Source: Candidatus Bathyarchaeota archaeon (GTDB lineage Archaea; Thermoproteota; Bathyarchaeia; Bathyarchaeales; WUQV01). From it: a stretch of DNA of 64,000 nucleotides. Where the stretch lies: assembly GCA_021158125.1 (NCBI GenBank), contig JAGGVF010000008.1, positions 3,827 to 67,826 of the forward strand, given 5' to 3'. Within the stretch, counting starts at the first letter, position 1; each line of letters starts with the position of its first letter. The notes below the pieces were generated by a model, which did not search any database, was not told the DNA's origin, and saw only the letters and a program-made list of their open reading frames with translations. Position numbers and translations under genes: made by a program. Below, in pieces: positions 11,692-36,120 of the stretch.

Positions 11692-11835
11692 AGATATTTC
11701 TCACTACGTTGTTATTTATCATTAAGCTTTTTCTACACCTCAGCAGTAGTAATTACAACCCTTGCAGATTATTTTTTCTATAAGTAACCAACAATAGAGC
11801 AATGAACTAGCATAGATAGCGTTACCAGGAAAAAA

Positions 11836-12354: not shown

Positions 12355-12390
12355 AATACTTACCCGGATTTAATACACCAAAATTTAGTC

Positions 12391-13941: not shown

Positions 13942-13997
13942 AGTCCTTAAACGCTCCAGTGAAGTTTAGGAATAATTTCATAAGAGCCAGTTATAAT

Positions 13998-15383: not shown

Positions 15384-15463
15384 CTTACTCTATATATGCG
15401 ATTTTGATGAACAACGCCAAATTTTTCTAAAGTTTTCCATTGGCATGGGTTTAGTAGATATGC

Positions 15464-16798: not shown

Positions 16799-16825
16799 TT
16801 TGGTTAATGGCTTTGGATTGGTTAG

Positions 16826-17332: not shown

Positions 17333-17448
17333 GAGTTTTTCTTTAGGAAAAACAGCATATAAAGTTTTCCTTTTTGTACTATAATTTGGTCATAAAAGGA
17401 AATAAATAAATATGAGAAAATCCAGTATCTCTGCGTTGGTGGAACAAG

Positions 17449-18456: not shown

Positions 18457-18482
18457 AAGCCGTATACAACAGAGGAACTTAC

Positions 18483-20077: not shown

Positions 20078-20868
20078 CCTTGGGAGAAAAAATTAAATTG
20101 AAAGCAGTTGACATAACGAAAATTTTCGAAGACGGAGATAGAAAGGTTGTAGCCATTAAAGACTTCAATTTAGAAGTAAAAGAAAATGAGTTCACCGTAA
20201 TAGTTGGGCCTTCAGGATGTGGAAAATCAACTTTTCTCTACATGGTTGCCGGGTTTGAAAAACCGACTAAAGGAAAAATTCTGCTTAACGGCAAACCAAT
20301 CACAAAACCGGGGCCAGATAGAGGAATAGTTTTCCAAGAACCAGCTCTTTACCCTTGGAGAACAGTTCTCGGCAACATAATGTTTGGACTTGAAGTAGCC
20401 GGTGTGCCTAAAGACAAGGCAAAAAAGAAAGCTATGCAATACGTCAAAATGGTCGGATTAACAGGATTTGAAAATGCTTATCCACACACTCTTTCAGGCG
20501 GAATGAAACAACGAGTAGGCATCGCCCGCGCACTTGCCTATGACCCAGAAATTTTATTAATGGATGAACCCTTCGGTGCACTTGACGCTCAAACACGTAA
20601 AATTATGCAACAAGAACTCATAAGAATATGGGAAAAAACCAAGAAAACAGTCATTTTCGTAACACATTCGGTTATTGAAGCAGTCTATCTTGCCGACACC
20701 ATAGTTGTTATGACTGCAAGACCGGGAAGGGTAAAGGGAATAATAAATGTTGATTTACCCAGACCTAGAAGCTATACAGATCCAGACTATCTTAAGATAA
20801 GGGAGAAAGTTTTAAGCCTTTTGGAAGAAGAAGTCAAGAAAAGCCTAGAACTAGAAAGAAAAATTTAA
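20074..20868 (+). CDS. ABC transporter ATP-binding protein
   Basis: Walker [10 protein letters not shown], signature LSGGMKQRV, Walker [13 protein letters not shown]. Start moved to ATG 20074 (AGGAGG upstream, ATGA overlap). Confidence 0.9.
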
Positions 20869-20870
20869 TT

Positions 20871-21887
20871 TTAAATTTTCACAGCAACCGGTTCGATATC
20901 TATTCCTCTAATCCATAATATTTTTTCCTTGAAAGCGTTAAACTTAGGCAGTTCAGGAATAGGCTCGTCGAAGGCCAGTTTTAAGTAGATTTCTGGGAGA
21001 TTTACTCCGGCTTTTACATACATATATGAAGGAGTAAAGAATCTTCCAGGATTTATTTCTGTAACGCAGGGAATTCCCTCCTTATTTTCCTTGAAGTCTA
21101 TCGAAAAAATTCCGTTCGGCCTATTTGACGCTGAATTTACAGTTTTTAAGGCAATTTCGTCGACTCTTTGGTCAGTTATTATTCTTGCAATAGATGGAGT
21201 CCCAGTAATGCCCGATGGGCTTACATGAGAGATTATATATTCAAGTCTTTCCCAAACTAAGCTGGTGATTAATTCTCCGTTTTTGAAAATGCTCTGCCAA
21301 GCTATATTTCTTCCAGGTAAGTATTCTTCTGCAACAAAGTTTCCCCAACCGTTCCAATAGTCAATCCAAGCTTTTGCATGTTCAAATTTCTCTACGGGCA
21401 GAGAACCTTTTCCACCAGCTCCTCTAATTGCCCGCAGCCAAATCCTTTGGCCAAACTCTTCGAAGGCTAATTTAATGTCTTCTTCCTTTGTTATTAGAAT
21501 ATTCCTTGCTGTCGGTATTTTTCTTTCTCTCAGATGTCTTATTAGTTCATACTTGTTATGGCAAAGTTTTACGGCTTTCTTGTCAGGAAGAAATGTTTTT
21601 GCCTTCAACTTCTCTCGGTCTTCGCTTATTCTTCCAACTTCCACATCTGGTTGTGCATGAACGAACTGAATGCTCTCTTTTTCAATGATTTCGTTTAGTT
21701 TCTCAATGTAATCCGCTTGGTCGTATCTTGGTACGACGTATCTTTTGTCAGCTTCTCGGGCCAAGTATATATGGTAAGGGTTACAATCCACGCCGACTAT
21801 GTATATTCTCTCATTTGACTCTCTAAGTGCTCTCATAAAGTTGACAGCAGCTGTTCCACCTGCTCCGCAGACCAGAATTCTCTTCAC
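20871..21887 (-). CDS. ATP-grasp domain ligase (substrate unknown)
   Basis: N-terminal Rossmann-like ILVCGAGG, central WLRAIRGAGGKGS, AEEYLPGRN, and C-terminal PCVTEINPGRF, all typical of ATP-grasp enzymes. Confidence 0.75.
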   Translation of the reverse strand: MKRILVCGAGGTAAVNFMRALRESNERIYIVGVDCNPYHIYLAREADKRYVVPRYDQADYIEKLNEIIEKESIQFVHAQPDVEVGRISEDREKLKAKTFLPDKKAVKLCHNKYELIRHLRERKIPTARNILITKEEDIKLAFEEFGQRIWLRAIRGAGGKGSLPVEKFEHAKAWIDYWNGWGNFVAEEYLPGRNIAWQSIFKNGELITSLVWERLEYIISHVSPSGITGTPSIARIITDQRVDEIALKTVNSASNRPNGIFSIDFKENKEGIPCVTEINPGRFFTPSYMYVKAGVNLPEIYLKLAFDEPIPELPKFNAFKEKILWIRGIDIEPVAVKI

Positions 21888-21917
21888 TTCATCCTCCCCA
21901 AAATTTTCTTGGCTAAT

Positions 21918-22913
21918 TTAATTTTTGCTTTCATTAATCTCTTCTTTAATAACCCTTTCTATAACGTCAACTGGATTTTCAAGCTTTTCCAGCAGCGGCT
22001 TCGTATCCCATTTTTTACCCAGATATTTTTTAGCATAATCTGTTGCAGCCGAGGGGCTGACGCTGAATATTGGAAAGCCCTTTTCCGCTAAGTACTTGTT
22101 AACGTACTGTTTCCCAAACAACTGAACTATTATACTTGGCGTTCCCATCAATGCAGCCTCTCTGGATAATGTTCCGCCTACGCTGACTACTAAATCCGCT
22201 TCGGCGACAAGACTTGCTGAATCTACAAATGTTTTGGGAACTATTAAGCCTCTTCTTGGTTTTCTTTTGTAACGTGGGAGAAAGACGACGTTAGCTAAGG
22301 AGCTTAATTTTTTAGCTATTTTCTCCGTTATATTGCTTACTCCCTCGGCATATGCAGCTTTAACCTCGGTTTCCCTCACTACGATAAACGGTTTTTCGAA
22401 GTCAAATCTCATTTTAGGTTTGAAATCTTTAATCCACGCTACTTCGTCCACTCCGTCAAATTGTACTAATTTTTTTGCTCCATACTGATAAACAGCTTGA
22501 GGAGGAATTGCTTTAGAAGCAATTACCATATCTGTTAGTGGAACAGTCAATCTACACTGGGCCTCTGCATGTGGGGTATCAAATGTTGAAATTAATGGTA
22601 TTCCAAGGCCGAATGCTACTCTGGCACACTCAATTGAAACGTGCATTATCGCAAGGTCAGGCTTATCTTTCTCAAACATTTTACAGAAAAGTAATTGTCT
22701 TCTTGCGCTTGCTTTAAGTCTTGTCATTTTTGAAGTTGGTGCATACTTTCCGACAACTATGGGTTTTTCGTTCAAAAGCTTTGCTAATAGTAAAGTGTCA
22801 GGGTGTTTTCTAGTCGTTAGTATAACCTTGTGACCAAGTTTCCGTAAACGTTCAGCTATTGCTACTCCATACCGAATATGTTTGCCTGTGCAAGCGTCAT
22901 ACCAAATTCGCAT
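21918..22913 (-). CDS. DUF354-family protein (predicted GT-B/epimerase-like fold)
   Basis: MRIWYDACTGKHIRYGVAIAERLRKLGHKVILTTRK..GIPLISTFDTPHAE..GGTLSREAALMGTPSI matches my memory of the archaeal DUF354 profile. Confidence 0.65.
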   Translation of the reverse strand: MRIWYDACTGKHIRYGVAIAERLRKLGHKVILTTRKHPDTLLLAKLLNEKPIVVGKYAPTSKMTRLKASARRQLLFCKMFEKDKPDLAIMHVSIECARVAFGLGIPLISTFDTPHAEAQCRLTVPLTDMVIASKAIPPQAVYQYGAKKLVQFDGVDEVAWIKDFKPKMRFDFEKPFIVVRETEVKAAYAEGVSNITEKIAKKLSSLANVVFLPRYKRKPRRGLIVPKTFVDSASLVAEADLVVSVGGTLSREAALMGTPSIIVQLFGKQYVNKYLAEKGFPIFSVSPSAATDYAKKYLGKKWDTKPLLEKLENPVDVIERVIKEEINESKN

Positions 22914-23032
22914 TGGAAACCCTCTGTATGCACATCTGCTTCCAGGTTAGACAGTATAGAAGTTAGACTTTAAACATTATTAACTTTCATATGACTACTA
23001 ACTGGAACGTTAGATCTAAAAGTTCAATAAAA

Positions 23033-23935
23033 TTAAAATAATAAACTTACAAGAACCGCAAGTCCCGAAAAAACAGCGATTATAAGTGAAACTATCGAGA
23101 CAAGCTGACGTTCAGACAGTTGTTTATAGTAAGCGATTAATGTTAAAAGGCTCCATCTATGATCTGCGAATAGTTTATTATTTCTTAATTTTAATGCTGG
23201 TGTTCTTTTGAAGAATAATATGTTTAACAATTTTAATGAAGAATTGAATATGTAGGGTAGAATGGAAATAAGTAATGTTTGTTCGATGTTTGCAATAATT
23301 GCGTAGGACGCGAGTGTAATTCCGATCGCAAAAGAACCAGTATTACCAACGAAAATTTTACCTTGAAAATTAAAGAAAGCTAACACAAGGTAAACTGCCA
23401 ATGGTACATAAAGCAATGCCCTATACTCTGGATTTGAAACTAGCATTAAGGCTATCAAAACTATGGAGGGGCAAATTGTTTCAAGTCCATTTAATCCTCC
23501 AAGCTGATTGACAGTGTTAGTTGTGACTGTTACAATTAACGGAATGACCCCAAAATAGAAAATTAACTCGCCAGGTATTATCCAAAAAGTAATTTGAGTG
23601 AAGTTTATCTTTCCAAATATGTAAGTAGACATTATGGGCGTTCCCTGCCTCAAAACTCCCAGCGGCAAAGCAGCAAAAATTGGAAGAAACGCCTTGTAAC
23701 GCCATCTTAGGTCAATCCAGTCGTCCAGTAAACCCATAAAACCGCCGAAAAGTATGCAGACAGCTAAATTTAAGGCAGGAGAGTTCTGGCTTTCGGCGAA
23801 ATTTATGCTATAAAAGCCATGTAACAAAAAAAGGTAGATTACCGAAAAAAGAACATAAAAAACTCCAAAACCGTTCGGAACAAGAGGGTTTCCAGGCTTA
23901 TGTCTGTCTGGAACCTTTGGGAACAACATCATCAC
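23033..23935 (-). CDS. aglH: Dolichyl/polyprenyl-phosphate N-acetylhexosamine-1-phosphate transferase (MraY/WecA-type glycosyltransferase family 4)
   Basis: About 10 TM. GLLDDWIDL, NQLGGLNGLE and FVGNTGSFAIG motifs. Starts 5 nt downstream of the aglB stop. Confidence 0.8.
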   Translation of the reverse strand: MMMLFPKVPDRHKPGNPLVPNGFGVFYVLFSVIYLFLLHGFYSINFAESQNSPALNLAVCILFGGFMGLLDDWIDLRWRYKAFLPIFAALPLGVLRQGTPIMSTYIFGKINFTQITFWIIPGELIFYFGVIPLIVTVTTNTVNQLGGLNGLETICPSIVLIALMLVSNPEYRALLYVPLAVYLVLAFFNFQGKIFVGNTGSFAIGITLASYAIIANIEQTLLISILPYIFNSSLKLLNILFFKRTPALKLRNNKLFADHRWSLLTLIAYYKQLSERQLVSIVSLIIAVFSGLAVLVSLLF

Positions 23936-23940
23936 TTACA

Positions 23941-26211
23941 TCATCTTATCAATTCATTGTTATAATGCACCTTGTAAATAGCAATAATAGGCAAAAATCC
24001 GTAATACGTCTTTATGTCGTTTCCATCCTTGGGATAAACAAGTTCAAAATGAGAACTAAAGAATTGATCTTCAGCAGTTGGATCTGTTACATTCGCATAG
24101 GAATGTCTATCCAAAATCAATTTGCATCTAGCATGCTCCATAAGAAGATAAATAAATGAATCATAAAATCTTCCGCCTTTCTCGCGAGGAATAATTGCAA
24201 AATTTGTTAAGTTTAAGTAATCACTTACATAAAGACGTCCCATACCCATATGTTCACATAAATCCTGCACCTTGCTACTTGAATTGCTTATTCGAAGCAT
24301 CCAAGTCCATTTTCCAAAATCTCCATATCCTACAATAGGATAATCTCTTGGAGTATCAGCTATAAAGTTAGGCCACCCACGATAACTGGACTCAATTTGC
24401 TGCCTAGTATAGTCGTAAACCACAAAGAAAACAAGCACGTAATCCGGAGGCCTATCAAATCTTGAACCCTTACTTGGATCTTTAATAATACTTAATACTT
24501 TAAAGGCGTTCGTTTCGTTTTCAACAAATGCTCTTCCAATTAACGCTATATGAGTTGTGTTAAATGTATTGTTATCTGCAACTGATGTTCTATTCGCTTC
24601 AACAGTTATCCAGTAGCCGTAATCCCACCAGCTAAAAACAACGGCATCCTTCGGAAGATTAGTTTTCATCCAGTGTAAGGCGTCCATCCATTCGGTTACT
24701 GGTTGCGATGGTGTAAGAGGGAGACTTCCAGAGAAAAGAGTAACCGGAGTATACGCATGATTAAAGACCCTTGGATACGGAAAGGCAAAGTTAGCCATTA
24801 AGAGCAAAAAGCACATAATTATTGGAACTGCGCTAAATTCTCTTCCTATGGTTCCAGCAAAAGCCTTCTTTTTAGGAATGACCCTACGTTCCTTCGCCAA
24901 GGTTATAAAGGGTTTTACAAGCCTTGTTATGCCTATACCCGCGATAAGTCCAACTGCTGGTGCAGATAAAACTAGAACTCTAACCATCGAACTTGAAAAG
25001 TACAATGCGGTTAAGCCGAAAATTATGAGGAAAATGTTTCGATTCGTCAAGTTTCCAGCAATGAAGAAGAAGCCCAGTACCATAAAGACTGCGACAACGC
25101 CAAATTCATAGTAAAGTGAAGACCAAGAAGTTACGCGATGCTCCTGCACTGACATTATTATTGGCGACGATTCTCTGGCAAAGGGGTTTAGAACAGATAT
25201 AAATTTCCCCGCAATACCACTTACATAGCCTAGCTGGTACAAGGTTAAAAAGCCCACGACAAGCATTGATGTAAAGGCTGCTACATATACTACCTTCCAT
25301 TTCGTGGTATGCGTTCTTTTAACAACTTCATTTAAACATAACAGCAAAAATACTCCTGCAACAATTAAAATTGCCCATGATTTTAAAAATCCTATACCGA
25401 GCTTTGGAACGTTCATTGCAATAAATAATCCGATTCCGAACAGTAGGCTGTAACTCAGAAGGAAGCGCGTGTTATATCTGCGTAATAAGATAATTACAAA
25501 TGCAAAGAGAGTAATTATTCCCACAGGGTAAAGTGCCGCTCCCCACGCGGAAAATATGTATCCTAACGCTGCCCCGGATAATATTCCATACATTATGGAA
25601 GATCTAATGGGCTTATCCTCTTCGATGGCTCTTAGGAAGAATAGGAAGCACAGTATGACTCCGAGAAGCCCTACTGTTTCGTCATCAAAGAAGCCGATGG
25701 ATGTTCTTGAGATGTAGGTTGGGCTTAGGGCAAGTATGAGAGCTGAAAGAAGCCCGACGTCCTTTCCGCCCACGTCTTTGCCGAGGAAGTAGAGTGCTAT
25801 GCAGGTTATGGCTCCCATGATTGCTGGGAACAGTATGCAGAAATCTTTGAGGGATATTTGTATCCCTAGCATGGATATTATGGTGTAAAATGTTGCAGCT
25901 GTCAATGGGAGACCTGGAAGGTTGGTTTTCGGAACATAAGCACCCCAAGGATACCAACGTTGATAGTCTCTCCAATCTACCCATGACAAGAAACCTTTGT
26001 TAACTACATGTTCAGTAAAGTGGTATTGCACGTACGGGTCGAATTCGGAGAGAGCCATTCCCCACCGCATTGGAAGAAGCCTAACAACCAATGCTACGAG
26101 AAAGATCAGGAAGAGAGCGGAAAAAACAAGTATCGTCTCATGGGAGATTTTTGGTCGAACTTTCCACAAGCTTTTTATGCTTTCGACAATTTTCTCCTTT
26201 CTAAGTTTCAC
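23941..26211 (-). CDS. aglB: Archaeal oligosaccharyltransferase (STT3 homologue)
   Basis: Multi-TM N-terminal half with the soluble-domain motif SWWDYGYWI (WWDYG). Confidence 0.9.
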   Translation of the reverse strand: MKLRKEKIVESIKSLWKVRPKISHETILVFSALFLIFLVALVVRLLPMRWGMALSEFDPYVQYHFTEHVVNKGFLSWVDWRDYQRWYPWGAYVPKTNLPGLPLTAATFYTIISMLGIQISLKDFCILFPAIMGAITCIALYFLGKDVGGKDVGLLSALILALSPTYISRTSIGFFDDETVGLLGVILCFLFFLRAIEEDKPIRSSIMYGILSGAALGYIFSAWGAALYPVGIITLFAFVIILLRRYNTRFLLSYSLLFGIGLFIAMNVPKLGIGFLKSWAILIVAGVFLLLCLNEVVKRTHTTKWKVVYVAAFTSMLVVGFLTLYQLGYVSGIAGKFISVLNPFARESSPIIMSVQEHRVTSWSSLYYEFGVVAVFMVLGFFFIAGNLTNRNIFLIIFGLTALYFSSSMVRVLVLSAPAVGLIAGIGITRLVKPFITLAKERRVIPKKKAFAGTIGREFSAVPIIMCFLLLMANFAFPYPRVFNHAYTPVTLFSGSLPLTPSQPVTEWMDALHWMKTNLPKDAVVFSWWDYGYWITVEANRTSVADNNTFNTTHIALIGRAFVENETNAFKVLSIIKDPSKGSRFDRPPDYVLVFFVVYDYTRQQIESSYRGWPNFIADTPRDYPIVGYGDFGKWTWMLRISNSSSKVQDLCEHMGMGRLYVSDYLNLTNFAIIPREKGGRFYDSFIYLLMEHARCKLILDRHSYANVTDPTAEDQFFSSHFELVYPKDGNDIKTYYGFLPIIAIYKVHYNNELIR

Positions 26212-26291
26212 TTCGGTTTCCCCATGCCGTGTTATTTGTTCGCGAAATTGTTAATTATATTGCTTTATTTAGGCATTTTGTTACATTTATT

Positions 26292-26714
26292 TTATTCTGT
26301 TTGTTCAAGCGTCTTTAGGTAATCTCTATATGCTTTTGAATCCATTAAGTTTTTTATTTCTTCGTTTATGTTTTCAGGCTGGATTTTCGCTATCCAGCCT
26401 TTTCCGTAGGGGTCTTGATTTACAAATTCGGGGTTTTCCGCAAGTTTGTCATTTACTTGGATTACTTCTCCAGATATTGGAGTGTATATTTCTGAAACTG
26501 CCTTTACGGATTCAACTGTTCCGATTGGTTCCATTTGCTTAACTCTTTTTCCTACTTCGGGCAAGTCAACGAATACTATTTCATGTAGGGCTTTTTGAGC
26601 ATAATCTGTTATTCCTACTGTAGCCATAGTATTATCAATTTTTAGCCATTCATGCTCTTTTGTGTAATAGAGGTTTTCAGGAACTATGTATTTTTCATTG
26701 CTCATTTCAATCAT
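26292..26714 (-). CDS. gcvH: Glycine cleavage system H protein
   Basis: YTKEHEWLK.. and the lipoyl-lysine motif VESVKAVSEIYTPISGEV. Confidence 0.9.
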   Translation of the reverse strand: MIEMSNEKYIVPENLYYTKEHEWLKIDNTMATVGITDYAQKALHEIVFVDLPEVGKRVKQMEPIGTVESVKAVSEIYTPISGEVIQVNDKLAENPEFVNQDPYGKGWIAKIQPENINEEIKNLMDSKAYRDYLKTLEQTE

Positions 26715-26751
26715 CTCTTTTCGGTTATTTTATATGCTGCATGTGTTTGGC

Positions 26752-27939
26752 TTAAGCTTTTAGTGTGGAAATTAACTTTCTTGCTTCTTCTATTGGATAT
26801 TTTTTCCCGTAAAGTATGACCGTGTCGTGGCTTCTTCGTTGATAGAACGGTAGTTTAACGATTTCTGCTTTGAGTAATTTGTCTCTGATTTTTACTTTGA
26901 CTTCTTCTCCTTCTTTGTACTCCTTCTTTACGTAGGCCATTCCTATTCCTATTTTTAAGAAGGGTGCGAAAGTTCCGCTTGTTATTTCTCCTATTTTTTT
27001 GCTGTTCTTGCAAACTTCATGATGCTGTCTCGGTATTCCTTTTTCAATCATTTTTATGCCTACTCTTCTTCGTTTTAGTCCTTCTTCCTTTTGTCTTAGC
27101 AATGCTTCTTTTCCGATGAAGCTTTCCTTGTTAAATTTTACCACGAAGCTTATTCTAGCTTCCAAAGGAGTGGTGTTTTCGTCTATGTCGTTTCCGTAGA
27201 GGCACATTCCCGCTTCTAAACGCAGTGTGTCTCTGGCTCCTAACCCGCATGGCTCTATTTGGAACTCTTTTCCAGCTTCAAGTATTGCGTTCCATACTTT
27301 GTGGGCTTTTTCTGGGTTGGTTACTGGCGTATTCCAAACGAATACTTCGAATCCGTCTTCTCCGGTGTAACCTGTTCTTGAAACAAAGGTTTGGGTTTCT
27401 GCAAGTTTTGTCCATCCGCATTTGAATCTTCCTATTTGGCTTAGATCTTCGGTGGAGATTTTCTGCAGTGTTTCTTGAGCTTTTGGCCCTTGAACTGCGA
27501 ACATTGCGATGTTTTCTGAAACATCTTCGATTTTTACGTTAAAGCCTTCTGCATGTTTTGTTAACCATTTGAAGTCTTTTTCTCTGTTGCTTGCGTTGTA
27601 TACCATTAAGAATTTTTCCTCTTCAAGTCTTGAAACCACAAAATCATCTATTATTCCGCCTTTCTCGTTGCATAGAGTTGAATATTGGGCGCTTAGAGGC
27701 GTCAGTAACGAAACATCGTTTGTAGAAACGTAGTTTAGGAATCTTTCTGCTTCTGGACCGATTATTAGGGCTCGGCCCATGTGGGTTATGTCGAATATTC
27801 CAACGTTGTTTCTAACGGCTAAGTGTTCCGGAATTATGCCCTTATACCATAGGGGCATTTCAAATCCAGCGAATAATGTCATTTTTGCATGTTGCCTATG
27901 AAAATTGTAGAGATGAGTTATTTTCCCCCTCTGATTCAC
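26752..27939 (-). CDS. gcvT: Glycine cleavage system T protein (aminomethyltransferase)
   Basis: FAGFEMPLWY..EHLAVRNNVGIFDITHMGR..RTGYTGEDGFEV. GTG start with GGAGG 7 nt upstream. Confidence 0.9.
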   Translation of the reverse strand: MNQRGKITHLYNFHRQHAKMTLFAGFEMPLWYKGIIPEHLAVRNNVGIFDITHMGRALIIGPEAERFLNYVSTNDVSLLTPLSAQYSTLCNEKGGIIDDFVVSRLEEEKFLMVYNASNREKDFKWLTKHAEGFNVKIEDVSENIAMFAVQGPKAQETLQKISTEDLSQIGRFKCGWTKLAETQTFVSRTGYTGEDGFEVFVWNTPVTNPEKAHKVWNAILEAGKEFQIEPCGLGARDTLRLEAGMCLYGNDIDENTTPLEARISFVVKFNKESFIGKEALLRQKEEGLKRRRVGIKMIEKGIPRQHHEVCKNSKKIGEITSGTFAPFLKIGIGMAYVKKEYKEGEEVKVKIRDKLLKAEIVKLPFYQRRSHDTVILYGKKYPIEEARKLISTLKA

Positions 27940-27959
27940 TCCTAAGCCTCCAGAATAAT

Positions 27960-28124
27960 TTATTTTGCTGGTTTAACCTCAACATCTGTGGGAATGTTCG
28001 AGAGTTTCCGGCCGCATTTTGGACATCTGCCATTATAACGTTGAACAATTTCTTCCGGCGGTTTTAAATCGTTCCCTTTGTATAATATTTCTCCACAATT
28101 TTGACAAACAACTATCTGGGGCAT
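27960..28124 (-). CDS. Small zinc-ribbon protein (54 aa), absent from the supplied ORF track
   Basis: My own translation: MPQIVVCQNCGEILYKGNDLKPPEEIVQRYNGRCPKCGRKLSNIPTDVEVKPAK*. Two CxxC pairs, a GGAG upstream, and a stop 20 nt before the gcvT start. Confidence 0.5.
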   Translation of the reverse strand: MPQIVVCQNCGEILYKGNDLKPPEEIVQRYNGRCPKCGRKLSNIPTDVEVKPAK

Positions 28125-28223
28125 AGCCTAGCTCTCCAAATTAACTTTGATATTGTGAATTGAATAAGCAAACTATTTATAGGTTCCGTGCATTTCATTG
28201 AATCCACAAAGGAGCCTCCTCCG

Positions 28224-30317
28224 ATGGAAAAGTACACATTAATAGTTACAGAAAAACCTGAAGCAGCTAGACGAATTGCCGAAGCGCTAAACTTAAAGGG
28301 TAAACCGAAAAAGCATGAAGAAAATGGGGTTCCTTACTATATTGCTGAAAGAAATAAGAAAATAGTTATTGTTCCCGCCTTAGGACATCTTTTCACAGTA
28401 ACTCACGAGAGAGGTGGAAGAAACTATTATCCAGTCTTCAATTTTATGTGGGCTCCCAGATATAAGGCTGAGCGAGGCGCACAACAAATTCGAACATGGA
28501 TAGAAACCATATCTAAACTTGCCGAAAACGCTAATGAATTCATCGACGCATGCGACTATGACATAGAAGGAAGCGTAATAGGCTATTGCATACTTAAATA
28601 CGCATGCAAAAGTAAGGAATCAGTAGCTAAGAGAATGAAGTTTTCAACGTTAACTAAGGCTGAACTGGAGAATGCCTACGAGAATCCGCTGCCAAAACTG
28701 GATTTTGCTTTAATAGAAGCGGGTAGAACGAGGCATGAAGTAGATTGGCTTTACGGCGTAAACTTAACGCGGGCCTTAACCCTAGCGGCAAGTAGGTCAA
28801 GCGGAAAATATGCCACCCTCAGCACCGGGAGAGTTCAAGGGCCAACCTTAAAGTTTCTTGTAGCCAGAGAAAAAGCCATAAGAAGTTTTGTTCCAATACC
28901 TTACTGGTCTATTAGAGCTGAAGTTGAAATTAAAGGTAAAATATACGAAGTTGAATATGAAAAGGAAATAATCAAGAAGAAAATAGAAGCAGACAAAATA
29001 ATTGAAGCTTGCCAGGGAAAAACTGGCAAAATTGAGAAAATAGAAGTTAGAAAGTTTAAGCAAGCGCCTCCTATTCCGTTTGATATTGGAGGTTTGCAGA
29101 CAGAAGCCTACAGCCTTTTCGGGTACACGCCGAGAAGAACGCTGAACATAGCTGAACGGCTCTATTTAAGCGCATTAATATCATATCCGAGAACAAGCAG
29201 TCAAAAACTACCGCCAGTGATAAATTACGAAAACATTCTGAAAGGATTAAGCAAAAACCCATCATACAGAAAATTAACTGCAGAATTGTTAGGAAAAGAA
29301 AAGCTTACACCAAGAGAAGGGAAGAAAGAAGACCCTGCGCATCCAGCCATATATCCAACCGGCAACATGCCCGACAGAGAGCTAAGCGAACCTGAAAGGA
29401 GAATATGGGACCTTGTGGTTAGGCGTTTTATGGCAGTTTTCGGCGAACCAGCAATCAAAGAAAGCATGAAAGTTACGATAGACGTTAATGGACACCGCTT
29501 CTTCCTTCGTGGGAGAAGAGTTCTAAAAGAAGGATGGACAAAGTTTTACGCTCCTTACATTAGAAGCGAAGAAATAATTCTCCCTTCATTAAAAGAGGAA
29601 GAAGAAGTAAAAATTGTAAGAGTAATAAGGGATGATAAGTTTACAAAGCCTCCTGCAAGGTATAATCCAAGCAGCTTGCTCAAAAAGATGGAAGAAGAAG
29701 GAATAGGAACTAAAGCGACAAGGGCGGACATAATTCAAACCCTCTATAACCGAAGATATATACGTGAAGAAAGAATAGTTGTAACAGATTTAGGCTTCGA
29801 CATAATAGAAGTTTTAGAAAAATACTGCCCACAAGTCATAAGCGTCCAGTTAACACGTGAACTAGAAAGCAAAATGGAAAAAATTCAAAGCAACGGCGAA
29901 AAAAGAGAAAACGTACTATTCGAAGCAGTTAACTTCCTCAAACCAATTCTTGAAGAAATCAAGAGCAAAGAGGCAGCCATAGGTAAAGCCTTAAACCAAG
30001 CTGTAAAAAAGGCGAGAATAGAAGAAAGAATAATTGGAAAGTGCCCAAACTGCGGAACAGGGCAATTAATGATTCTATATTCAAGAAAAACCAGAAAACG
30101 CTTCATTGGATGCACAAACTACTTTAAAGGACTATGCAAAACCTCCTTCCCGCTTCCGCAAAGGGGAACCTTAAAACCAACAGGTGCACAATGCAAACAA
30201 TGCGGATGGCCAACAATACAAGTCAGAATGAAGGGAAGAAGGCCATGGACCTTGTGCTTTAATCCCCAATGCCCCTCCAGAGAAAGGAGGAAAAAAGTTG
30301 AAGTGCAAAATATGTGA
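28224..30317 (+). CDS. topA: Type IA DNA topoisomerase
   Basis: Toprim N-terminus YTLIVTEKPEAARRIAEAL, SYPRTSSQKLP active-site Tyr region, and C-terminal Zn-ribbons CPNCG../CKQCG... Start moved to ATG 28224. Confidence 0.9.
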   Translation: MEKYTLIVTEKPEAARRIAEALNLKGKPKKHEENGVPYYIAERNKKIVIVPALGHLFTVTHERGGRNYYPVFNFMWAPRYKAERGAQQIRTWIETISKLAENANEFIDACDYDIEGSVIGYCILKYACKSKESVAKRMKFSTLTKAELENAYENPLPKLDFALIEAGRTRHEVDWLYGVNLTRALTLAASRSSGKYATLSTGRVQGPTLKFLVAREKAIRSFVPIPYWSIRAEVEIKGKIYEVEYEKEIIKKKIEADKIIEACQGKTGKIEKIEVRKFKQAPPIPFDIGGLQTEAYSLFGYTPRRTLNIAERLYLSALISYPRTSSQKLPPVINYENILKGLSKNPSYRKLTAELLGKEKLTPREGKKEDPAHPAIYPTGNMPDRELSEPERRIWDLVVRRFMAVFGEPAIKESMKVTIDVNGHRFFLRGRRVLKEGWTKFYAPYIRSEEIILPSLKEEEEVKIVRVIRDDKFTKPPARYNPSSLLKKMEEEGIGTKATRADIIQTLYNRRYIREERIVVTDLGFDIIEVLEKYCPQVISVQLTRELESKMEKIQSNGEKRENVLFEAVNFLKPILEEIKSKEAAIGKALNQAVKKARIEERIIGKCPNCGTGQLMILYSRKTRKRFIGCTNYFKGLCKTSFPLPQRGTLKPTGAQCKQCGWPTIQVRMKGRRPWTLCFNPQCPSRERRKKVEVQNM

Positions 30318-30528
30318 CAAGGAAACAGAAAGCGAATTCTGCAGTTTCCACCAGAAAGCCTACGAAAATTTAATAAAAAACTACGAAGAATGGAAGAAAG
30401 CTTTAGAAATAAGCTGGGAAGACTATTTAAATGAGATAATAAAAAATCCATATAGCGGAAAATGGGTAAAAGAGGTAGCCGAATATTTGACTAAACACGG
30501 AGGGAAAACGCCACGGCAAGAAAAATGA
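30298..30528 (+). CDS. Small Cys/His-knuckle protein (76 aa, TTG start)
   Basis: MKCKICDKETESEFCSFHQ (CxxC-x8-CxxH). AGGAGG 7 nt upstream of the TTG. Overlaps the topA 3' end by 20 nt, and its stop overlaps the next ATG. Confidence 0.5.
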   Translation: MKCKICDKETESEFCSFHQKAYENLIKNYEEWKKALEISWEDYLNEIIKNPYSGKWVKEVAEYLTKHGGKTPRQEK

Positions 30529-30932
30529 AAAGAAAGGCGAAATCCTTCTCCTTTAGGCTCAGAAAACTTTGGGATAGAATAATTACCTATAAACCTTCAA
30601 TCTGGATTATTGGAGGAACAATTATGGCAATCTGTATATTCTTTTTAGGAGGAGGAATCTACGATATACTAGTAAAACCCGGAATACTTGGACAATGGCA
30701 AGGACGCATACTAACCTTTTATCCACAGAGAATTAACGAGCAATTTTTGATGGAAAGCATACTTGTTTCAATACTTTACGCTTTAGGAGCAGTTGGCTTA
30801 ATTTTAACTTATCAAAGCACAAAGTATGTTTACAAGCCAAGACAAGCCTATATAATGCTAATAGTTGGAGTATCAATGGTTACAGTGGTGTATATTCTCA
30901 TCGAAATAAGCCTAAGAAATAAAATAGGATAA
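30525..30932 (+). CDS. Small multi-pass membrane protein resembling eukaryotic OSTC/DC2 (Ost3/6 membrane core)
   Basis: FLGGGIYDILVKPGILG and FYPQRINEQFLMESILVSILYALGAVGLILTYQS align by eye with human OSTC ITGGIIYDVIVEPPSVG and [32 protein letters not shown]. Length and TM layout are similar. Confidence 0.5.
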   Translation: MKRKAKSFSFRLRKLWDRIITYKPSIWIIGGTIMAICIFFLGGGIYDILVKPGILGQWQGRILTFYPQRINEQFLMESILVSILYALGAVGLILTYQSTKYVYKPRQAYIMLIVGVSMVTVVYILIEISLRNKIG

Positions 30933-30962
30933 TAAGACATGAAAACGTCAAAGATAAACGCC

Positions 30963-31454
30963 CTAAAAAGGATGACTTTTTAATTTAAGCAGGTACGCTA
31001 AAAAATTAGTTATTAAATGAACTGGTGGAGTAATTACAATTATGGTGATGAAAACTTCTAATGTTGGAGGCATTAACAGAAAAGAAAAAAGCGTAGCCCC
31101 TAAAACAAAGTCAAGTTGGTCTGCTACTGGAAGCATTTTTCCGGGTTTTAATCCTATTCTTCTTTTGAAAAAGGATTTTACTAGGTCTCCGGTTAGGGCG
31201 CCGAGGGAAGTGATAAATCCGAAAAGTATGGGGTAACCGAAAAATAGATTTTCGGCAATACCAACAAGTGAGCCTATAATTAATCCTGAGAAGAAACCTC
31301 TGAAAGTCTTGTTTTCTCCAAAGATTCGACGGCCATCTTTGTAATTTTTCCCTAAGTCGAGGGGTTTTCCTCCGCCGATTATTACTGGTGTGGCATTGGC
31401 GCAGTAGGCGGGAAGTATGAATTTTAGGGCTTCTATTATTGTCTCTATTATCAA
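30963..31454 (-). CDS. carS: CDP-archaeol synthase
   Basis: ILPAYCANATPVIIGGGKPLDLG..GENKTFRGFFSG..GDLVKSFFKRR, the CarS (DUF46) signature. Five TM, 163 aa. Confidence 0.85.
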   Translation of the reverse strand: MIIETIIEALKFILPAYCANATPVIIGGGKPLDLGKNYKDGRRIFGENKTFRGFFSGLIIGSLVGIAENLFFGYPILFGFITSLGALTGDLVKSFFKRRIGLKPGKMLPVADQLDFVLGATLFSFLLMPPTLEVFITIIVITPPVHLITNFLAYLLKLKSHPF

Positions 31455-32194
31455 GTTTGTTCATCTATGGCGGTTATGCCTCTTTGGGTGATTTTCAGAA
31501 AGCACGTTTTAAGTTTTTTCTGTTCTGGATGTTTCTCCAGAACGGCTTTTATTACATATGGACGTGTTGTCGGCTTCAGATTTATAACGGTGTCTGCCCA
31601 GAATTTTAGGACTCTTGTCGCAACGGGTTCAACAATCATTTCTTCGGTTTGGAGGACGCTTCTAACTTGGCTTGTTAATAGGACTGTCATTTTTCTTGTT
31701 TTTGCCAGCTGCGATAGATATGCTAGTTGTCTGTTTAGTTCTCTGTTTAATTTGAAAATTTTCTTTGAGTTTTCGGCGAGTTCGGCTCTGTATAGCGATG
31801 TAACTGTGTCAATTGCTATTAAACGGACTTTTTCTGTAATTAAGTTTTCAAGTTGGTCGATTAAGTAGGATTGCTGTTTAAAATTTTCTGGTTTTGCTAG
31901 GATTATTTTTTCTGCGATTTCTTCGTAGTCTTCGGGGGCTATTTGGATTAAACGTTGGGTTGAGAAGCTTCCGTCGCAGTCGACCAGTATTGTTTTTAGT
32001 TTCATTCTTCCGCAGTTGACAGCGCACTGGATAGTCAGAGTGGTCTTCCCTGTTTCAGCTTCTCCATAGATTAAATTTAGAGTTTCAGCTGTTAGTCCTC
32101 CCATTAGTAATCTGTCGAGCGAACTGCACCCTGTTGAGATTACCAGTCTCAATGCTGTTTCACACGTCAAAGCCAAAATAGTTAAGCTTAACAT
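31451..32194 (-). CDS. radB: RadB-like RecA-family ATPase
   Basis: ISTGCSSLDRLLMGGL, Walker A GEAETGKTT, Walker B LIAIDTV. The longest ORF (TTG at 32245) would overlap the divergent gene, so ATG 32194 is preferred. The start remains uncertain. Confidence 0.7.
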   Translation of the reverse strand: MLSLTILALTCETALRLVISTGCSSLDRLLMGGLTAETLNLIYGEAETGKTTLTIQCAVNCGRMKLKTILVDCDGSFSTQRLIQIAPEDYEEIAEKIILAKPENFKQQSYLIDQLENLITEKVRLIAIDTVTSLYRAELAENSKKIFKLNRELNRQLAYLSQLAKTRKMTVLLTSQVRSVLQTEEMIVEPVATRVLKFWADTVINLKPTTRPYVIKAVLEKHPEQKKLKTCFLKITQRGITAIDEQT

Positions 32195-32234
32195 TAATAA
32201 CTTTGTTCTACTAAACATTAAGTGAAAGAAGCTT

Positions 32235-32879
32235 ATGAAAGCCAAAATTGCCCTTGCAACAGTTTCAGGGAAGGCATACTACTTGCTAGTTAGCGAGCTT
32301 AAGCGAAGAAAAATAAATTTCTTAAGCCTCACCCCCTTCGAGCAAATACCCGCTAATGTAAAGGTGGTAATCACAACCGCAAAGGAGCGGAATCTAATTT
32401 CTCACAGCAACGTGCTTGCCTTTCACGAGGACGACGACCCAGCAGAAATAGTTGAAGAGGCAGAAAGGATTGCTGAAGGGAAGGAGTCATATGAAAAGCT
32501 GGTTATAGGAGTTGACCCCGGGAAAAACTTTGGAATCGCAGTGCTTGGTGACGGCAAGGTAATTGAGGCATTAAACTGCTCCAATATCTATGAAACTGTA
32601 AACGTTATCAAAAAAGCAATAGAAAGGGAACCAGCCGAAAAAGTCTACGTAAAAGTTGGAGACGGAACACCGGAATATACTAACGCCCTAATGCAACTAC
32701 TAGATAAAGCTTTGCCCGAAACCGTTATAATTGAAAAAGTTCATGAAGCCGGAACAAGCCGTTATTCAATTGAAGAAAAGCATAGACGAGGATTACGAGA
32801 TGTTATGTCTGCAATAAAAATTGCTGGGCGAAACGGTCAAAAACTGAGCAGAAAGGGAGGAAAAGAAAGTGAAATGTGA
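32235..32879 (+). CDS. RNase H-fold (RuvC/YqgF-like) putative nuclease
   Basis: LVIGVDPGKNFGIAVLGDGKVI is the typical first beta-hairpin with a catalytic Asp. Preceded by an extra N-terminal domain of about 90 aa. Confidence 0.45.
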   Translation: MKAKIALATVSGKAYYLLVSELKRRKINFLSLTPFEQIPANVKVVITTAKERNLISHSNVLAFHEDDDPAEIVEEAERIAEGKESYEKLVIGVDPGKNFGIAVLGDGKVIEALNCSNIYETVNVIKKAIEREPAEKVYVKVGDGTPEYTNALMQLLDKALPETVIIEKVHEAGTSRYSIEEKHRRGLRDVMSAIKIAGRNGQKLSRKGGKESEM

Positions 32880-34155
32880 CGTTGATGCGGGAAAAACCTT
32901 ACTTGTTGACGGCCCCGCGTCAATAGACATTGTTTCAGGAGAAGTTGAAGTTTTAGCCGCCCCTATGAAGGCTGGAACCCGAATAATTGTTAGGGAAGGG
33001 AAAAGAATTCCGTTAGAGGTTAAGTCCAACGCTTCCTTTGAAATAATGCTTGGAGAAGGTGCCTCATACGAAGAGGTTGAAGGCTCAACCATTCCTGAAA
33101 ACTGGATAAAAACTGCAAAGGAGATAGTTTCCGAAGCTTCTTCAAAACTCGGATTTGTAGCCACAATTATGGGCGAAGTAGATTCCGGAAAAACGAGCTT
33201 TTGCACTTACTTAGCGAATACAGCCATAAAAGAGAAATTGAAAGTAGCCATCATCGACGGAGATTTAGGGCAATCCGACATAGGGCCGCCTTCTACAATC
33301 GGCTACTCAATACTCAAAGGACACGTTAAAGACCTTTTCGACGTTAACGCTGAAGATGCATACTTTATTGGTTTAACAAGTCCTGGAGCAGCAACAAAAG
33401 AGGTTATCGAGGGGCTATGTAAGCTTAAAGAGAAGGTTATGATGGAAGAGGCCGAACTGGTAGTGGTGAACACTGACGGTTGGATTGAGGGGGAGGACGC
33501 TGCAAGTTATAAACTGAGACTTGTGGATGCCTTAAAACCGGACGCAGTTGTGGGAATCCAGCAAAACGATGAACTACTGCATATTTTAAGCGGAATTGGA
33601 GGAGCAAAAGTCTACATAATTGATTCCCCTTCGGCAATTAAGAAGAGAGACAGAGAAAAAAGGAAGATTTTGAGGGAGCTTAGCTATAAGAAGTATCTGC
33701 GCGGGGGAAAGGTTCAATCGTTCCTGATAAACTGGATAAATCTTGAGGGAACCCTTCTCGGTAAAGGAATTCAACCATCCAAGGAAAGAATGAGGCAGAT
33801 AGAAAATCTTTTAGGAGTTAAACCGTGGTATTGCGAGGAAACTCAAAAAACAATTTTGATAGTTTTAGGCAGAGGAAAATGGGTAGCTGAGGAAAACATC
33901 AGAAAACTTGAGGAAAACATTAAAAAACGAATTAAAATTTTCCGTGAAGGAGAAGAAACAGGACTTCTTGTCTCTTTGAAGGATATTAACGGAAAATTTT
34001 TGGGGATAGGTGTTTTGCAGGGTATAGATTATAAACGTAAGGCCATCAAGATTTACACTCCAGTTAAGGAAGGAATACACACCGTTCATATAGGCCAGGT
34101 TAAGCTTGACAAGGAAGGGAAGGAAATAGGAATCTGCACAATTTTCACAAATTAA
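32869..34155 (+). CDS. clp1: Clp1/Grc3-family polynucleotide 5'-hydroxyl kinase (archaeal COG1341 type)
   Basis: Walker A GEVDSGKTSF followed by IIDGDLGQSDIGPPSTIG. GTG start overlapping the upstream gene by 11 nt. Confidence 0.7.
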   Translation: MKCDVDAGKTLLVDGPASIDIVSGEVEVLAAPMKAGTRIIVREGKRIPLEVKSNASFEIMLGEGASYEEVEGSTIPENWIKTAKEIVSEASSKLGFVATIMGEVDSGKTSFCTYLANTAIKEKLKVAIIDGDLGQSDIGPPSTIGYSILKGHVKDLFDVNAEDAYFIGLTSPGAATKEVIEGLCKLKEKVMMEEAELVVVNTDGWIEGEDAASYKLRLVDALKPDAVVGIQQNDELLHILSGIGGAKVYIIDSPSAIKKRDREKRKILRELSYKKYLRGGKVQSFLINWINLEGTLLGKGIQPSKERMRQIENLLGVKPWYCEETQKTILIVLGRGKWVAEENIRKLEENIKKRIKIFREGEETGLLVSLKDINGKFLGIGVLQGIDYKRKAIKIYTPVKEGIHTVHIGQVKLDKEGKEIGICTIFTN

Positions 34156-34173
34156 CCCGGTAAGTAAAATAGC

Positions 34174-36120
34174 CTAATTACGACCTGTTGTTGGAAAACC
34201 GAAGAAAAGCATCAACTCTTTTGCTATTCTCCCATCTTCGTCCGGAAGTGTCTTGATATTTCTCCTAATCCAGTTTGGAAGGAACCTCTGACAGTAGATT
34301 GTGGCAAAGCGGTAGTCCAAGAATATTATTGCCCCTTTATCGTCGAGGGTCCTTATGGGTCTCCCGGCGGCTTGTGATGCCTTTTTTAACGCTGGAAGGA
34401 TATAGCCGTATTCTCTGCCTTTCCCTGGAAAACGGCTCTCATAATATCTCACTTGAGACTTTACTCTTGGAGTTGGCTCTGCGTAGGGAACGCCGACTAT
34501 AACAACAGCGTTCATACTATCACCGGGATAATCAACCCCTTCGCTTGACCGACCGCCTTGAACACCGAGCAAAACTGCTCCTCCCTTTTTCGAGTAGTCT
34601 TTAAACCGTTTAATGAGTTGTTCATTATCCTTCGATCTCATTCCTTTCCTTTCATAAAATAGTGGTTTTTCAATTAAATCCTCTACTCCGGCGGCGAGTA
34701 TTCCTTCTAGAACGTCGAAGGAGGCGGTGAAAACTCCTACGTTGGCTGGTGTGAACCTTGCAACTTCAGCTATTCTTAACGCTAGTTTCCGGTACATTTC
34801 ATCTGTTCGCTTTTGCATAGCCGTCGTTACTCCTCTACAGACAAGTGCTAGTATATGCTCATGTGGAAAAGGTGAGGAAACCGCATGTAAAACTGTTTGT
34901 TTGGGCATTGATGTCACTTGCATGTAAGCTTCTAAAGGTTCCAAGGTCCCTGACATGACAACGCTTGCATAAACTGTGGAGAAAACAGGTTCAGTTATCT
35001 TTGCCGGGTCTAAAGCCACGATTTCAAGCTTAGCCGAAGTTTTTCCCGCTTTTGTCTGATACTTACTTATAACATGTGTAAAGGATGGGTCTTCGCTTGT
35101 TTCCATCCATTTTATGAGAAATTCGGCTATTCTGCGGATATATGAGCGGGGATACTTCCCTTTTGCCAGAAGGTTATGGCGAATTATCTCGCCTAGACTT
35201 AAAAGCTCCTCAAAAAATGTTAGGGGCTGAGAAACATCTGCCTTTGTCTTTAATAGGTCTAAAAAGAATTTTGGCGGCAATTGAGCTTCATCTTTTACTG
35301 ATTCGGCTATTCTCTCAACAATTTTATGTAGTTTTTTGCAGAAAACTGCAGCATCCTCGTAGCCTTGCTCCTTCGCTTCCCTTTCACCTTGCCTAATTGT
35401 GAAAAGGGAAAGTTCGTCGCTTGCGATTTCTATAGCTGTGTCTGGAAGGTTATGGGCTTCGTCAACGATTAAAATGAACCTTTCCATGGGAGTTTCTAAT
35501 TTTTTGAAGAAAACACTTCTTATCAACGGGTCAAATATGTAGAGATAACTTAAGGCGATAACATCAACCTCTTCCAGCATAAGTTTTGTGAATTCATATG
35601 GACAAAATCCTTGAGACTTGCATATTTTGAGGATTTCACTTGCTTTTAAAGTTTCATTAGATAATTCGTAGAGAAGTTCAGCGCAAGAGTTGAATTCCTC
35701 CTCAATTTTCGCATAATATGGGCATTCTTTTCTCGCCCTTAACAATCTGCATATTTCCATTACTGAACGTGTATCCCTTGCATGTCTCAAAACAAACGGA
35801 TGTAGACACATTTCGCTTCGTCCACGTATGGAAATCCCTGAAACTGGCTGTTTCCTCGATATTGCCTTTAACTCTTCTATTACACGGTCATGCTGCCTAT
35901 GGGTTTTAGCCAAATAAAGGATACGTAAGTTTTTTTCCTTGGCAACTGGGAGACACGCAGAAAGCGCCGATACAGTTTTTCCTAACCCATTGCTTCCTTC
36001 AATTAAAATGCTCTTCCCTTCAGATACAGCCCCGTAAACCGCCTGTATGAACTCGTCTTGAAACGGCCTAACAGACTTGTAAGGGAAGTACTCAGCAGCC
36101 ATTTTCGGGATTTCAAGCAT
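34174..36120 (-). CDS. xpd: XPD/Rad3-family 5'-3' DNA helicase with an Fe-S domain
   Basis: GSNGLGKT Walker A, VDEAHNL (DEAH), and a Cys cluster region (EMCLHP..ECPYY..GFCPYE). Confidence 0.9.
   Translation of the reverse strand: MLEIPKMAAEYFPYKSVRPFQDEFIQAVYGAVSEGKSILIEGSNGLGKTVSALSACLPVAKEKNLRILYLAKTHRQHDRVIEELKAISRKQPVSGISIRGRSEMCLHPFVLRHARDTRSVMEICRLLRARKECPYYAKIEEEFNSCAELLYELSNETLKASEILKICKSQGFCPYEFTKLMLEEVDVIALSYLYIFDPLIRSVFFKKLETPMERFILIVDEAHNLPDTAIEIASDELSLFTIRQGEREAKEQGYEDAAVFCKKLHKIVERIAESVKDEAQLPPKFFLDLLKTKADVSQPLTFFEELLSLGEIIRHNLLAKGKYPRSYIRRIAEFLIKWMETSEDPSFTHVISKYQTKAGKTSAKLEIVALDPAKITEPVFSTVYASVVMSGTLEPLEAYMQVTSMPKQTVLHAVSSPFPHEHILALVCRGVTTAMQKRTDEMYRKLALRIAEVARFTPANVGVFTASFDVLEGILAAGVEDLIEKPLFYERKGMRSKDNEQLIKRFKDYSKKGGAVLLGVQGGRSSEGVDYPGDSMNAVVIVGVPYAEPTPRVKSQVRYYESRFPGKGREYGYILPALKKASQAAGRPIRTLDDKGAIIFLDYRFATIYCQRFLPNWIRRNIKTLPDEDGRIAKELMLFFGFPTTGRN

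Follow-up and report, generated by a model that had tools for sequence, protein, structure and literature searches.

We analyzed a stretch of 64,000 nucleotides from a Candidatus Bathyarchaeota archaeon (hereafter, the window), which encodes a protein of 135 amino acids with three transmembrane helices (30525..30932, + strand, ATG start). Based on its sequence and its modeled structure, this protein is an archaeal member of the OSTC/Ost3/Ost6 membrane-core family (PF04756), of a minimal form that resembles OSTC/DC2. In archaea, N-glycosylation is commonly attributed to one enzyme alone, AglB. Our analysis suggests, with a probability of roughly 0.6, that the OSTC-like protein acts as a structural accessory subunit on the membrane domain of AglB. 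The open reading frame (ORF) had been singled out in an original prediction that quoted two alignment blocks of human OSTC; the ORF is present as claimed, with its ATG start, and both blocks were reproduced by HMMER.

Homology to OSTC

The protein scored 30.5 bits against PF04756 (OST3_OST6; E = 3.2e-7), which exceeds the gathering cut-off of 27, and it aligned to positions 167-282 of the 294 positions of the profile. Human OSTC matches the same part of this profile (positions 168-292; 37.8 bits). No domain besides PF04756 was found above threshold in the Pfam scan of the 135-aa protein. When the protein was searched against the PDB with phmmer, OSTC was the sole match (E = 3.9e-9; 39.6 bits), with residues 24-134 of the query aligned to residues 28-143 of OSTC. 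The human reference in this search is the OSTC chain from the cryo-electron microscopy structure of OST-A, an oligosaccharyltransferase (OST) complex. A profile of 47 Bathyarchaeia homologues (alignment A1) retrieved only OSTC from the PDB (E = 2e-10). A profile of 63 distant archaeal relatives (alignment A2) retrieved OSTC (E = 2.6e-19; 72 bits), residues 208-325 of the 335 residues of MagT1 (E = 3e-8; 36 bits) and yeast Ost3 (E = 0.31). These profile matches, which agree with the OSTC likeness proposed originally, indicate that the archaeal family is homologous to the entire OSTC/Ost3/MagT1 membrane core and is clearly nearest to OSTC.

Short hydrophobic proteins often yield spurious low-level matches, and the likeness could in principle reflect the transmembrane composition of an unrelated small hydrophobic protein, or of a sequence that is no gene. 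The Smith-Waterman score against OSTC was 126, relative to 30.7 +/- 5.5 for 2000 shuffles of OSTC (maximum 59; z = 17), and we obtained z = 18 when shuffling within 20-residue windows, which keeps the transmembrane layout. The hidden Markov model of the 47 homologues gave 44 bits to the real OSTC and at most 11.6 bits to 2000 shuffles. Residues 28-143 of the human OSTC sequence used for these controls agree with the PDB alignment. The similarity was therefore far above the one observed with shuffled transmembrane sequences.

The final AlphaFold2 (AF2) model of the protein was built with a more diverse alignment of 75 sequences and reached a predicted local distance difference test score (pLDDT) of 86.1 and a predicted template modeling score (pTM) of 0.70. 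We compared this predicted model to the solved structures of the PDB using Foldseek. The four best matches were all OSTC chains (template modeling score, TM-score, of 0.69-0.86; root-mean-square deviation, rmsd, of 1.7-2.5 Å; best E = 1.4e-5), namely 8pn9_H (TM-score 0.72/0.86; rmsd 1.7), 6s7o_H (TM-score 0.69/0.84; rmsd 1.9), 8b6l_J (TM-score 0.73/0.80) and 9n9j_J (E = 1.4e-5). Ranks 5-9 were occupied by chains of yeast Ost3, yeast Ost6 and human MagT1 from OST complexes, and the TM-score dropped to 0.29 at rank 10. The nine top matches are thus all OSTC, Ost3, Ost6 or MagT1, and the predicted fold is compatible with OSTC.

A first AF2 model, based on the 47 close homologues, presented a lower confidence (pLDDT 68.8) and matched OSTC in Foldseek with E of ~0.07-0.2 and a TM-score of ~0.5; it was superseded by the final model. 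The low confidence of this first model (pLDDT 69) would fit a chance resemblance. However, this explanation is refuted by the shuffles (z = 17-18; 44 bits relative to at most 11.6), by a PF04756 score above the curated cut-off, by specific Foldseek matches followed by a sharp drop and by the presence of 20 invariant positions across the 47 homologues. We consider a chance resemblance, or the absence of a gene, to be next to impossible.

Layout and conservation of the protein

The three hydrophobic segments of the protein match those of OSTC in order and spacing, as had been proposed from the sequence. All the elements described here are encoded on the + strand. An N-terminal helix (residues 8-21; 30546..30587) was modeled by AF2 inside a Lys/Arg-rich segment. 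The first transmembrane helix, TM1 (residues 26-49; 30600..30671), was modeled as two helices (26-41 and 44-49) and ends in the motif FLGGGIYD, which aligns to ITGGIIYD in OSTC and of which G43, G44 and Y46 are invariant in the 47 Bathyarchaeia homologues. The predicted extracellular loop that follows (residues 50-74; 30672..30746) forms a short beta-hairpin in the AF2 model (strands 56-58 and 61-63), and its prolines P52 and P67 are also invariant in these homologues.

At the outer end of TM2, we identified the motif Q73-x3-E77 (30741..30755) in an alignment of 11 sequences (alignment A4) composed of the window protein, seven archaeal homologues, human OSTC, and fragments of MagT1 and yeast Ost3. 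Q73 and E77 are at least 90% conserved in this alignment. The nearly universal positions are G43, Q73, E77, G91 and G115, which bring out a GG motif where TM1 ends and a Q-x3-E motif at the outer end of TM2. Among the 63 diverse archaeal sequences, the E of this motif is invariant and the Q is nearly invariant. TM2 itself covers residues 75-97 (30747..30815; AF2 helix; hydropathy peak at 75-93).

The conservation of the homologues further defines a motif in the predicted cytoplasmic loop between TM2 and TM3, YQSTKYVYKPRQA (residues 96-108; 30810..30848). In its general form, YQSTKYxYRPRQA, residues Y96, S98, T99, K100, R106, Q107 and A108 are invariant in the 47 homologues, and the consensus of the 63 diverse archaeal sequences is STxxxYxPRxA. 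This loop is the most conserved archaeal motif of the family, whereas human OSTC presents DRSNAPNIPKLNRF at this location. TM3 (residues 105-134; 30837..30926; AF2 helix; hydropathy peak at 110-128) is followed by a very short C-terminal tail that is predicted to face outward. Twenty positions are invariant across the 47 homologues of alignment A1, and the sequences indicate that the OSTC-like gene is under strong purifying selection. No paralogue of the gene was detected within the 64-kb window.

Nine Lys or Arg residues are located in residues 1-23, ahead of TM1, and three in the loop formed by residues 97-107. From the positive-inside rule, we infer that the N-terminus is cytoplasmic and the C-terminus is outside. 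This predicted topology would be compatible with OSTC and with the lumenal C-terminus reported for DC2 (PMC5674889).

Host lineage and distribution of the family

The host is a member of Bathyarchaeia (TACK) and not an Asgard archaeon. OST3/6-like genes had been described in the original prediction as occurring mainly in Asgard lineages. Asgard members do exist, but the present gene lies outside of them and the presence of the family in TACK is already in print (PMC11417166). All the close homologues with a name came from metagenome-assembled genomes of Candidatus Bathyarchaeota/Bathyarchaeia. Across species-representative genomes (one per species), we found 253 stretches encoding a relative, and the best 80 of these 253 all belong to Bathyarchaeia; the neighbor counts reported below as fractions of 80 rest on this set. 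The patterns used to scan these genomes were peptides specific to the Bathyarchaeia subfamily, and the scan is not informative on other phyla.

We then searched 1.84 billion representative proteins with a profile of the family. This yielded 317 clusters (50% identity) at E <= 0.001, of which 141 were found at E <= 1e-10, and the best 150 of the 317 clusters are small proteins, mostly of ~110-190 aa. A second search using the profile of the 63 distant archaeal sequences gave at least 29 matches with almost no taxon names beyond Bathyarchaeia. One cluster contains the Lokiarchaeota protein TXT65921.1, which carries the NCBI name 'OST3 / OST6 family protein'. Among twenty distant representatives, informative names were obtained for three clusters, namely this Lokiarchaeota cluster and two other divergent subfamilies labeled Bathyarchaeota/Bathyarchaeia. 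Most of the Bathyarchaeia homologues are already tagged PF04756 in the database, under the NCBI name 'hypothetical protein'.

One relative from a Joint Genome Institute (JGI) metagenome (P0258; 341 aa) carries a zinc ribbon and HEAT repeats fused ahead of its OSTC-like three-helix core. These N-terminal additions are predicted to be cytoplasmic, and this natural fusion is a hint that family members interact with cytoplasmic partners through their N-terminal side.

AglB and the proposed role of the OSTC-like protein

The window encodes AglB (23941..26211, - strand; PF02516 STT3, 8.5e-45) and, directly downstream of aglB, an AglH-like phosphosugar transferase of the GT4 family (23033..23935, - strand; PF00953 Glycos_transf_4, 5.9e-21). 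The original prediction had placed an aglB-aglH operon near the OSTC-like gene. Both genes were confirmed by Pfam and the start of AglB lies 4.3 kb upstream, but they are carried by the opposite strand, and the link with the OSTC-like gene is one of conserved neighborhood and not of a shared operon. Between the two lie gcvH, gcvT, a small zinc-ribbon ORF and topA. In the PDB, the best match of this AglB was human STT3A (E = 2.4e-83; 284 bits), ahead of STT3B (263 bits) and yeast Stt3 (240 bits), while the euryarchaeal AglB of A. fulgidus reached only 28.8 bits. Two motifs stand out in its sequence, WWDYG at residue 528 and, at residue 546, the eukaryote-type double sequon DNNTFNTT; such a double sequon has been described for the AglBs of TACK and Asgard archaea (PMC8993221). 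As judged by these comparisons, the AglB of the window resembles eukaryote-type STT3 and is the presumed partner of the OSTC-like protein. We measured the linkage between the two genes in the 53 Bathyarchaeia loci whose upstream flank spans 7 kb or more: AglB was found within 8 kb in 36 of them and AglH in 28.

DC2 requires STT3A for its stability (PMC5674889) and every solved structure containing this fold places it on STT3, and for these reasons we propose that the archaeal protein would bind AglB. The OSTC-like protein would attach to the side of the membrane domain of this STT3A-like AglB, at the site used by DC2/Ost3 on eukaryotic STT3, and form the non-catalytic subunit of a small archaeal oligosaccharyltransferase complex. 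In this position, it could stabilize AglB and shape the membrane face beside the entry of the lipid-linked oligosaccharide and of the substrate. The outer-side Q-x3-E, which is common to OSTC, MagT1 and Ost3, may serve a function shared by these proteins, and the archaeal-specific loop STKYxYRPRQA may contact an archaeal partner. The oxidoreductase job of Ost3/6 would be impossible for this protein because the thioredoxin domain is missing.

Several observations weigh against a role on AglB. The OSTC-like gene is not part of an agl operon; it runs in the direction of topA and of a topoisomerase-like zinc-finger ORF and is coupled to them. The neighbors of the gene are unrelated housekeeping genes (CarS, RadB, Clp1-like, XPD and GcvT/H) that recur in other lineages with or without STT3, and AglB was not detected within the 8-kb upstream flank in 17 of the 53 loci. 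Finally, the most conserved motif of the family, in the cytoplasmic loop, has no counterpart in OSTC, and the function of the protein may thus partly differ from that of OSTC.

A more specific version of the accessory-subunit role is that of a translocon adaptor. The protein would then be a DC2-like bridge between AglB and SecYEG, allowing co-translational glycosylation that scans the emerging chain, and it would reach SecY/SecE or the ribosome through its conserved cytoplasmic loop and its basic N-terminal helix. In mammals, DC2 and KCP2 dock OST to the translocon (PMC5674889), and the archaeal sequence is much nearer to OSTC/DC2 than to Ost3/MagT1 (OSTC only with A1; 72 and 36 bits, respectively, with A2) and is devoid of a thioredoxin domain. 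AglB scores best against STT3A, the translocon-docked isoform, but its preference over STT3B is small (284 vs 263 bits). Likewise, the loop motif is as strongly conserved as a protein contact would be, although it differs from DC2, indicating that the docking surface is unconserved. No linkage to secY was observed in any locus examined, and no KCP2-like partner was seen, no search having been aimed at KCP2. Neither ribophorin nor any further OST subunit was identified here. Overall, we regard docking on the translocon as rather unlikely.

Since the genomic linkage is loose, the protein could instead be a true OSTC/Ost3 homologue that operates in another membrane process, independently of AglB. 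It could take part in the transport of cations (Mg2+), a role once suggested for MagT1/TUSC3, or act in lipid metabolism alongside the CDP-archaeol synthase (CarS) encoded next to it. The Pfam label of PF04756 is indeed 'transporter family', but a three-helix protein of 135 aa without conserved intramembrane charges is an unlikely transporter. CarS is the immediate convergent neighbor in 79 of the 80 loci, which makes it more constant than AglB, and three loci from more distant relatives (L081 from Lokiarchaeota, L083 and L088) contain no STT3 within flanks of 6-8 kb on each side. However, the adjacency of CarS is specific to the lineage and is absent in L081, L088 and another distant locus (L086), and all the solved structures with this fold are OST complexes in which the fold sits on STT3. 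An AglB-independent function is therefore unlikely, and a structural accessory subunit of AglB remains the role that we favor.

Gene order around the OSTC-like gene

The OSTC-like gene is the last gene of a co-directional string that also comprises topA and a Cys/His ORF of 76 aa, and this string is followed by the convergent gene of CarS. The gene topA encodes a type IA topoisomerase (28188..30317, + strand; Pfam Topoisom_bac, 2.3e-123, and Toprim). The 76-aa ORF (30298..30528, + strand) overlaps the end of topA by 20 nt in a different frame. The ATG of the OSTC-like gene in turn overlaps the TGA of the 76-aa ORF as ATGA (30525..30528, + strand), an arrangement that had been reported in the original prediction and that can be read directly in the sequence. 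This overlap indicates translational coupling of the OSTC-like gene to the 76-aa ORF. The same geometry, in which the OSTC-like start precedes the end of the upstream stop codon by 3 nt, was observed in the two closest relatives (L001 and L002).

The small Cys/His ORF is present as had been described, but it is also found to resemble the C-terminal end of topoisomerase I: it matches positions 605-670 of the 677 positions of NF004438 (DNA topoisomerase I; E = 2e-13; 49 bits), a score far under the full-length cut-off of this model. An A6 run in topA first raised the suspicion of a sequencing frameshift. However, 70 of 71 Bathyarchaeia loci keep both the split and the frame offset, with an in-frame fusion in L016 only, and the ORF possesses its own TTG, ATG or GTG start in 62 of 67 loci, which led us to reject this explanation. 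A GGAGG-like purine tract precedes the ORF in the junctions listed. These sequence comparisons suggest a stable fission that made the topoisomerase C-terminus a separate gene, and not a sequencing error.

The neighborhood is well conserved across Bathyarchaeia. Besides CarS, we found a RadB-like gene in 77 of the 80 loci, ORF214 (with a faint match to DUF460) in 76, the 76-aa ORF in 74, a Clp1-like gene in 74 and topA in 72. A 54-aa zinc-ribbon ORF with a CxxC...CxxC pattern (27960-28124, - strand) is divergent from topA and occupies the same position in 56 of the 80 loci.

Parts of this arrangement extend to other lineages. In L081, the OSTC-like gene lies beside NAD kinase, GcvH, an MptE-like gene and a Rad51-like gene. 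Among the loci of the distant homologues, GcvT/GcvH are directly upstream in L083; L086 presents a divergent topA, GcvT, GcvH, NAD kinase and an STT3 of 903 aa starting 4.8 kb downstream; and L088 contains NAD kinase, an MptE-like gene, topA and a Rad51-like gene. Taken together, the region 21918-36120 of the window and L081, L083, L084, L086 and L088 outline an old gene-order block found in Bathyarchaeia, Lokiarchaeota and other archaeal lineages. Its content varies by lineage and draws on topA, the OSTC-like gene, RadB/Rad51-like genes, XPD helicase, GcvT/GcvH, NAD kinase, the MptE-like gene and sometimes STT3/AglB. This synteny is unusually deep for functionally unrelated genes. Because the distant homologues keep parts of the same block, we conclude that the OSTC-like gene belongs to an old housekeeping block that sometimes includes STT3, and not to a dedicated agl operon.

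The glycosylation gene island

AglB and AglH lie at one end of a glycosylation gene island that spans 7-26 kb of the window (~7099-26211). The island encodes an NAD-dependent sugar epimerase/dehydratase (7099-8049), a GT4 glycosyltransferase (9325-10563), a UDP-GlcNAc 2-epimerase (10591-11691) and two UDP-sugar dehydrogenases (13998-15383 and 15464-16798), along with a methyltransferase, an ATP-grasp protein and a DUF354 protein. It is interrupted by an ABC transporter operon (17449-20868). The island also contains a polytopic membrane protein of 516 aa (12391-13941, - strand) with ~12-14 hydrophobic segments, for which no Pfam match was obtained at E <= 0.001. This protein may be a flippase or a polymerase-type protein.

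Evolutionary implications

OST3/6 homologues of Asgard archaea have been reported as eukaryotic signature proteins (PMC10307638; bioRxiv 10.1101/2021.04.02.438162), and according to a paper of 2024, OST3/6 is present in both TACK and Asgard archaea (PMC11417166). In the literature that we searched, no paper ties OSTC/DC2 by name to Bathyarchaeota or to archaea. The family was thus already known in Asgard archaea, mentioned for TACK and recognized by Pfam in these genomes, so that the practical gain of our analysis is modest. What is new here is the structure-level confirmation and the synteny data, which provide a well-supported member in a lineage where this family has been little discussed.

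Shrimal et al. (2017) considered DC2 to be unrelated to MagT1/TUSC3 and proposed that STT3A, DC2 and KCP2 accompany multicellularity in metazoans and plants (PMC5674889). In sequence, the archaeal family forms a link between OSTC and MagT1, and its architecture is DC2-like. This points in the opposite direction and suggests that the DC2-like form may be ancestral. One could combine these elements into a joint claim: the DC2-like form, with three helices and no thioredoxin domain, would be ancestral to OSTC/Ost3/Ost6 and would predate the split between TACK and Asgard archaea, and Bathyarchaeia would possess a two-subunit OST, made of this protein and an STT3A-like AglB, that docks on SecYEG. 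Taken as a whole, this claim is speculative and rather doubtful. If it were true, archaea would have invented translocon-coupled co-translational N-glycosylation before the Asgard-eukaryote lineage arose, and this coupling would not be a late innovation of metazoans and plants. Ost3/6/TUSC3/MagT1 would then have derived later from the DC2-like form, by gain of a thioredoxin domain and of one more helix.

More generally, the conservation of a putative OSTC-like partner beside an STT3A-like AglB across a non-Asgard class suggests that multi-subunit OST could be older and more widespread in archaea than the single-enzyme view implies. The archaeal proteins filed as "OST3/OST6" resemble DC2 and not Ost3, which bears on the ancestral form of the family and on the origin of translocon-coupled glycosylation.

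Comparison with known systems

The window protein shares with Ost3, Ost6, TUSC3 and MagT1 its membership in PF04756 and the Q-x3-E motif, and its three helices superpose on Ost3, Ost6 and MagT1 chains (6ezn_C, 8agc_H, 7oci_C and 6s7t_H) with TM-scores of 0.61-0.73. However, the archaeal profile aligns only to the C-terminal part of MagT1, from residue 208 to residue 325. The sequence similarity to Ost3/MagT1 is much weaker than to OSTC, as these proteins were matched in the PDB only with the wider A2 profile and not with A1. In contrast to the Ost3/6 group, which possesses four helices and an N-terminal thioredoxin domain, the window protein has three helices and begins ~25 residues before TM1. 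It presents no thioredoxin match in Pfam and no CxxC, its single cysteine being C37. Because the thioredoxin domain and the fourth helix are both missing, the protein is OSTC/DC2-like and not Ost3-like.

The likeness to OSTC/DC2 covers the size of the protein (135 aa in the window and 149 aa in human), the order and spacing of three transmembrane helices without any lumenal or extracellular domain, the GG-x-YD motif that closes TM1 and the Q-x3-E motif with which TM2 begins. Both proteins are also found with an STT3A-like catalytic subunit, which is the partner in human OST-A and the nearby AglB here. Nevertheless, their identity is only ~24%. The N-terminal segment LKLKKPPW of OSTC corresponds to SFSFRLRKLWDRI in the window protein, the loop STKYxYRPRQA is archaeal and has no counterpart in OSTC, and the C-terminal tail is shorter in the window protein. 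The archaeal host also lacks an endoplasmic reticulum, so that the complex would be located in the cell membrane.

The Asgard OST3/OST6 proteins belong to the same family. The A1 profile retrieves P0247 with E = 1.7e-11; the cluster of P0247 holds the Lokiarchaeota protein TXT65921.1, and P0247 scores 48.3 bits on PF04756. The Asgard proteins also consist of a three-helix core without a recognized thioredoxin domain (e.g., TXT65921.1, 183 aa, and the OST3/6 protein of MK-D1; PMC11417166), and GcvH and a Rad51-like gene recur as neighbors. They differ by a longer Lys-rich N-terminal extension with RKPKIKFP, which resembles LKLKKPPW of OSTC. Against human OSTC, the Asgard protein scored 61.6 bits (blastp) and the window protein ~40 bits (phmmer), a rough comparison given that the programs differ. 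At the sequence level, the Bathyarchaeia branch appears more divergent than the Asgard-type proteins. The higher OSTC score of the Asgard proteins fits vertical descent, with Asgard archaea closer to eukaryotes, and argues against a recent transfer from eukaryotes.

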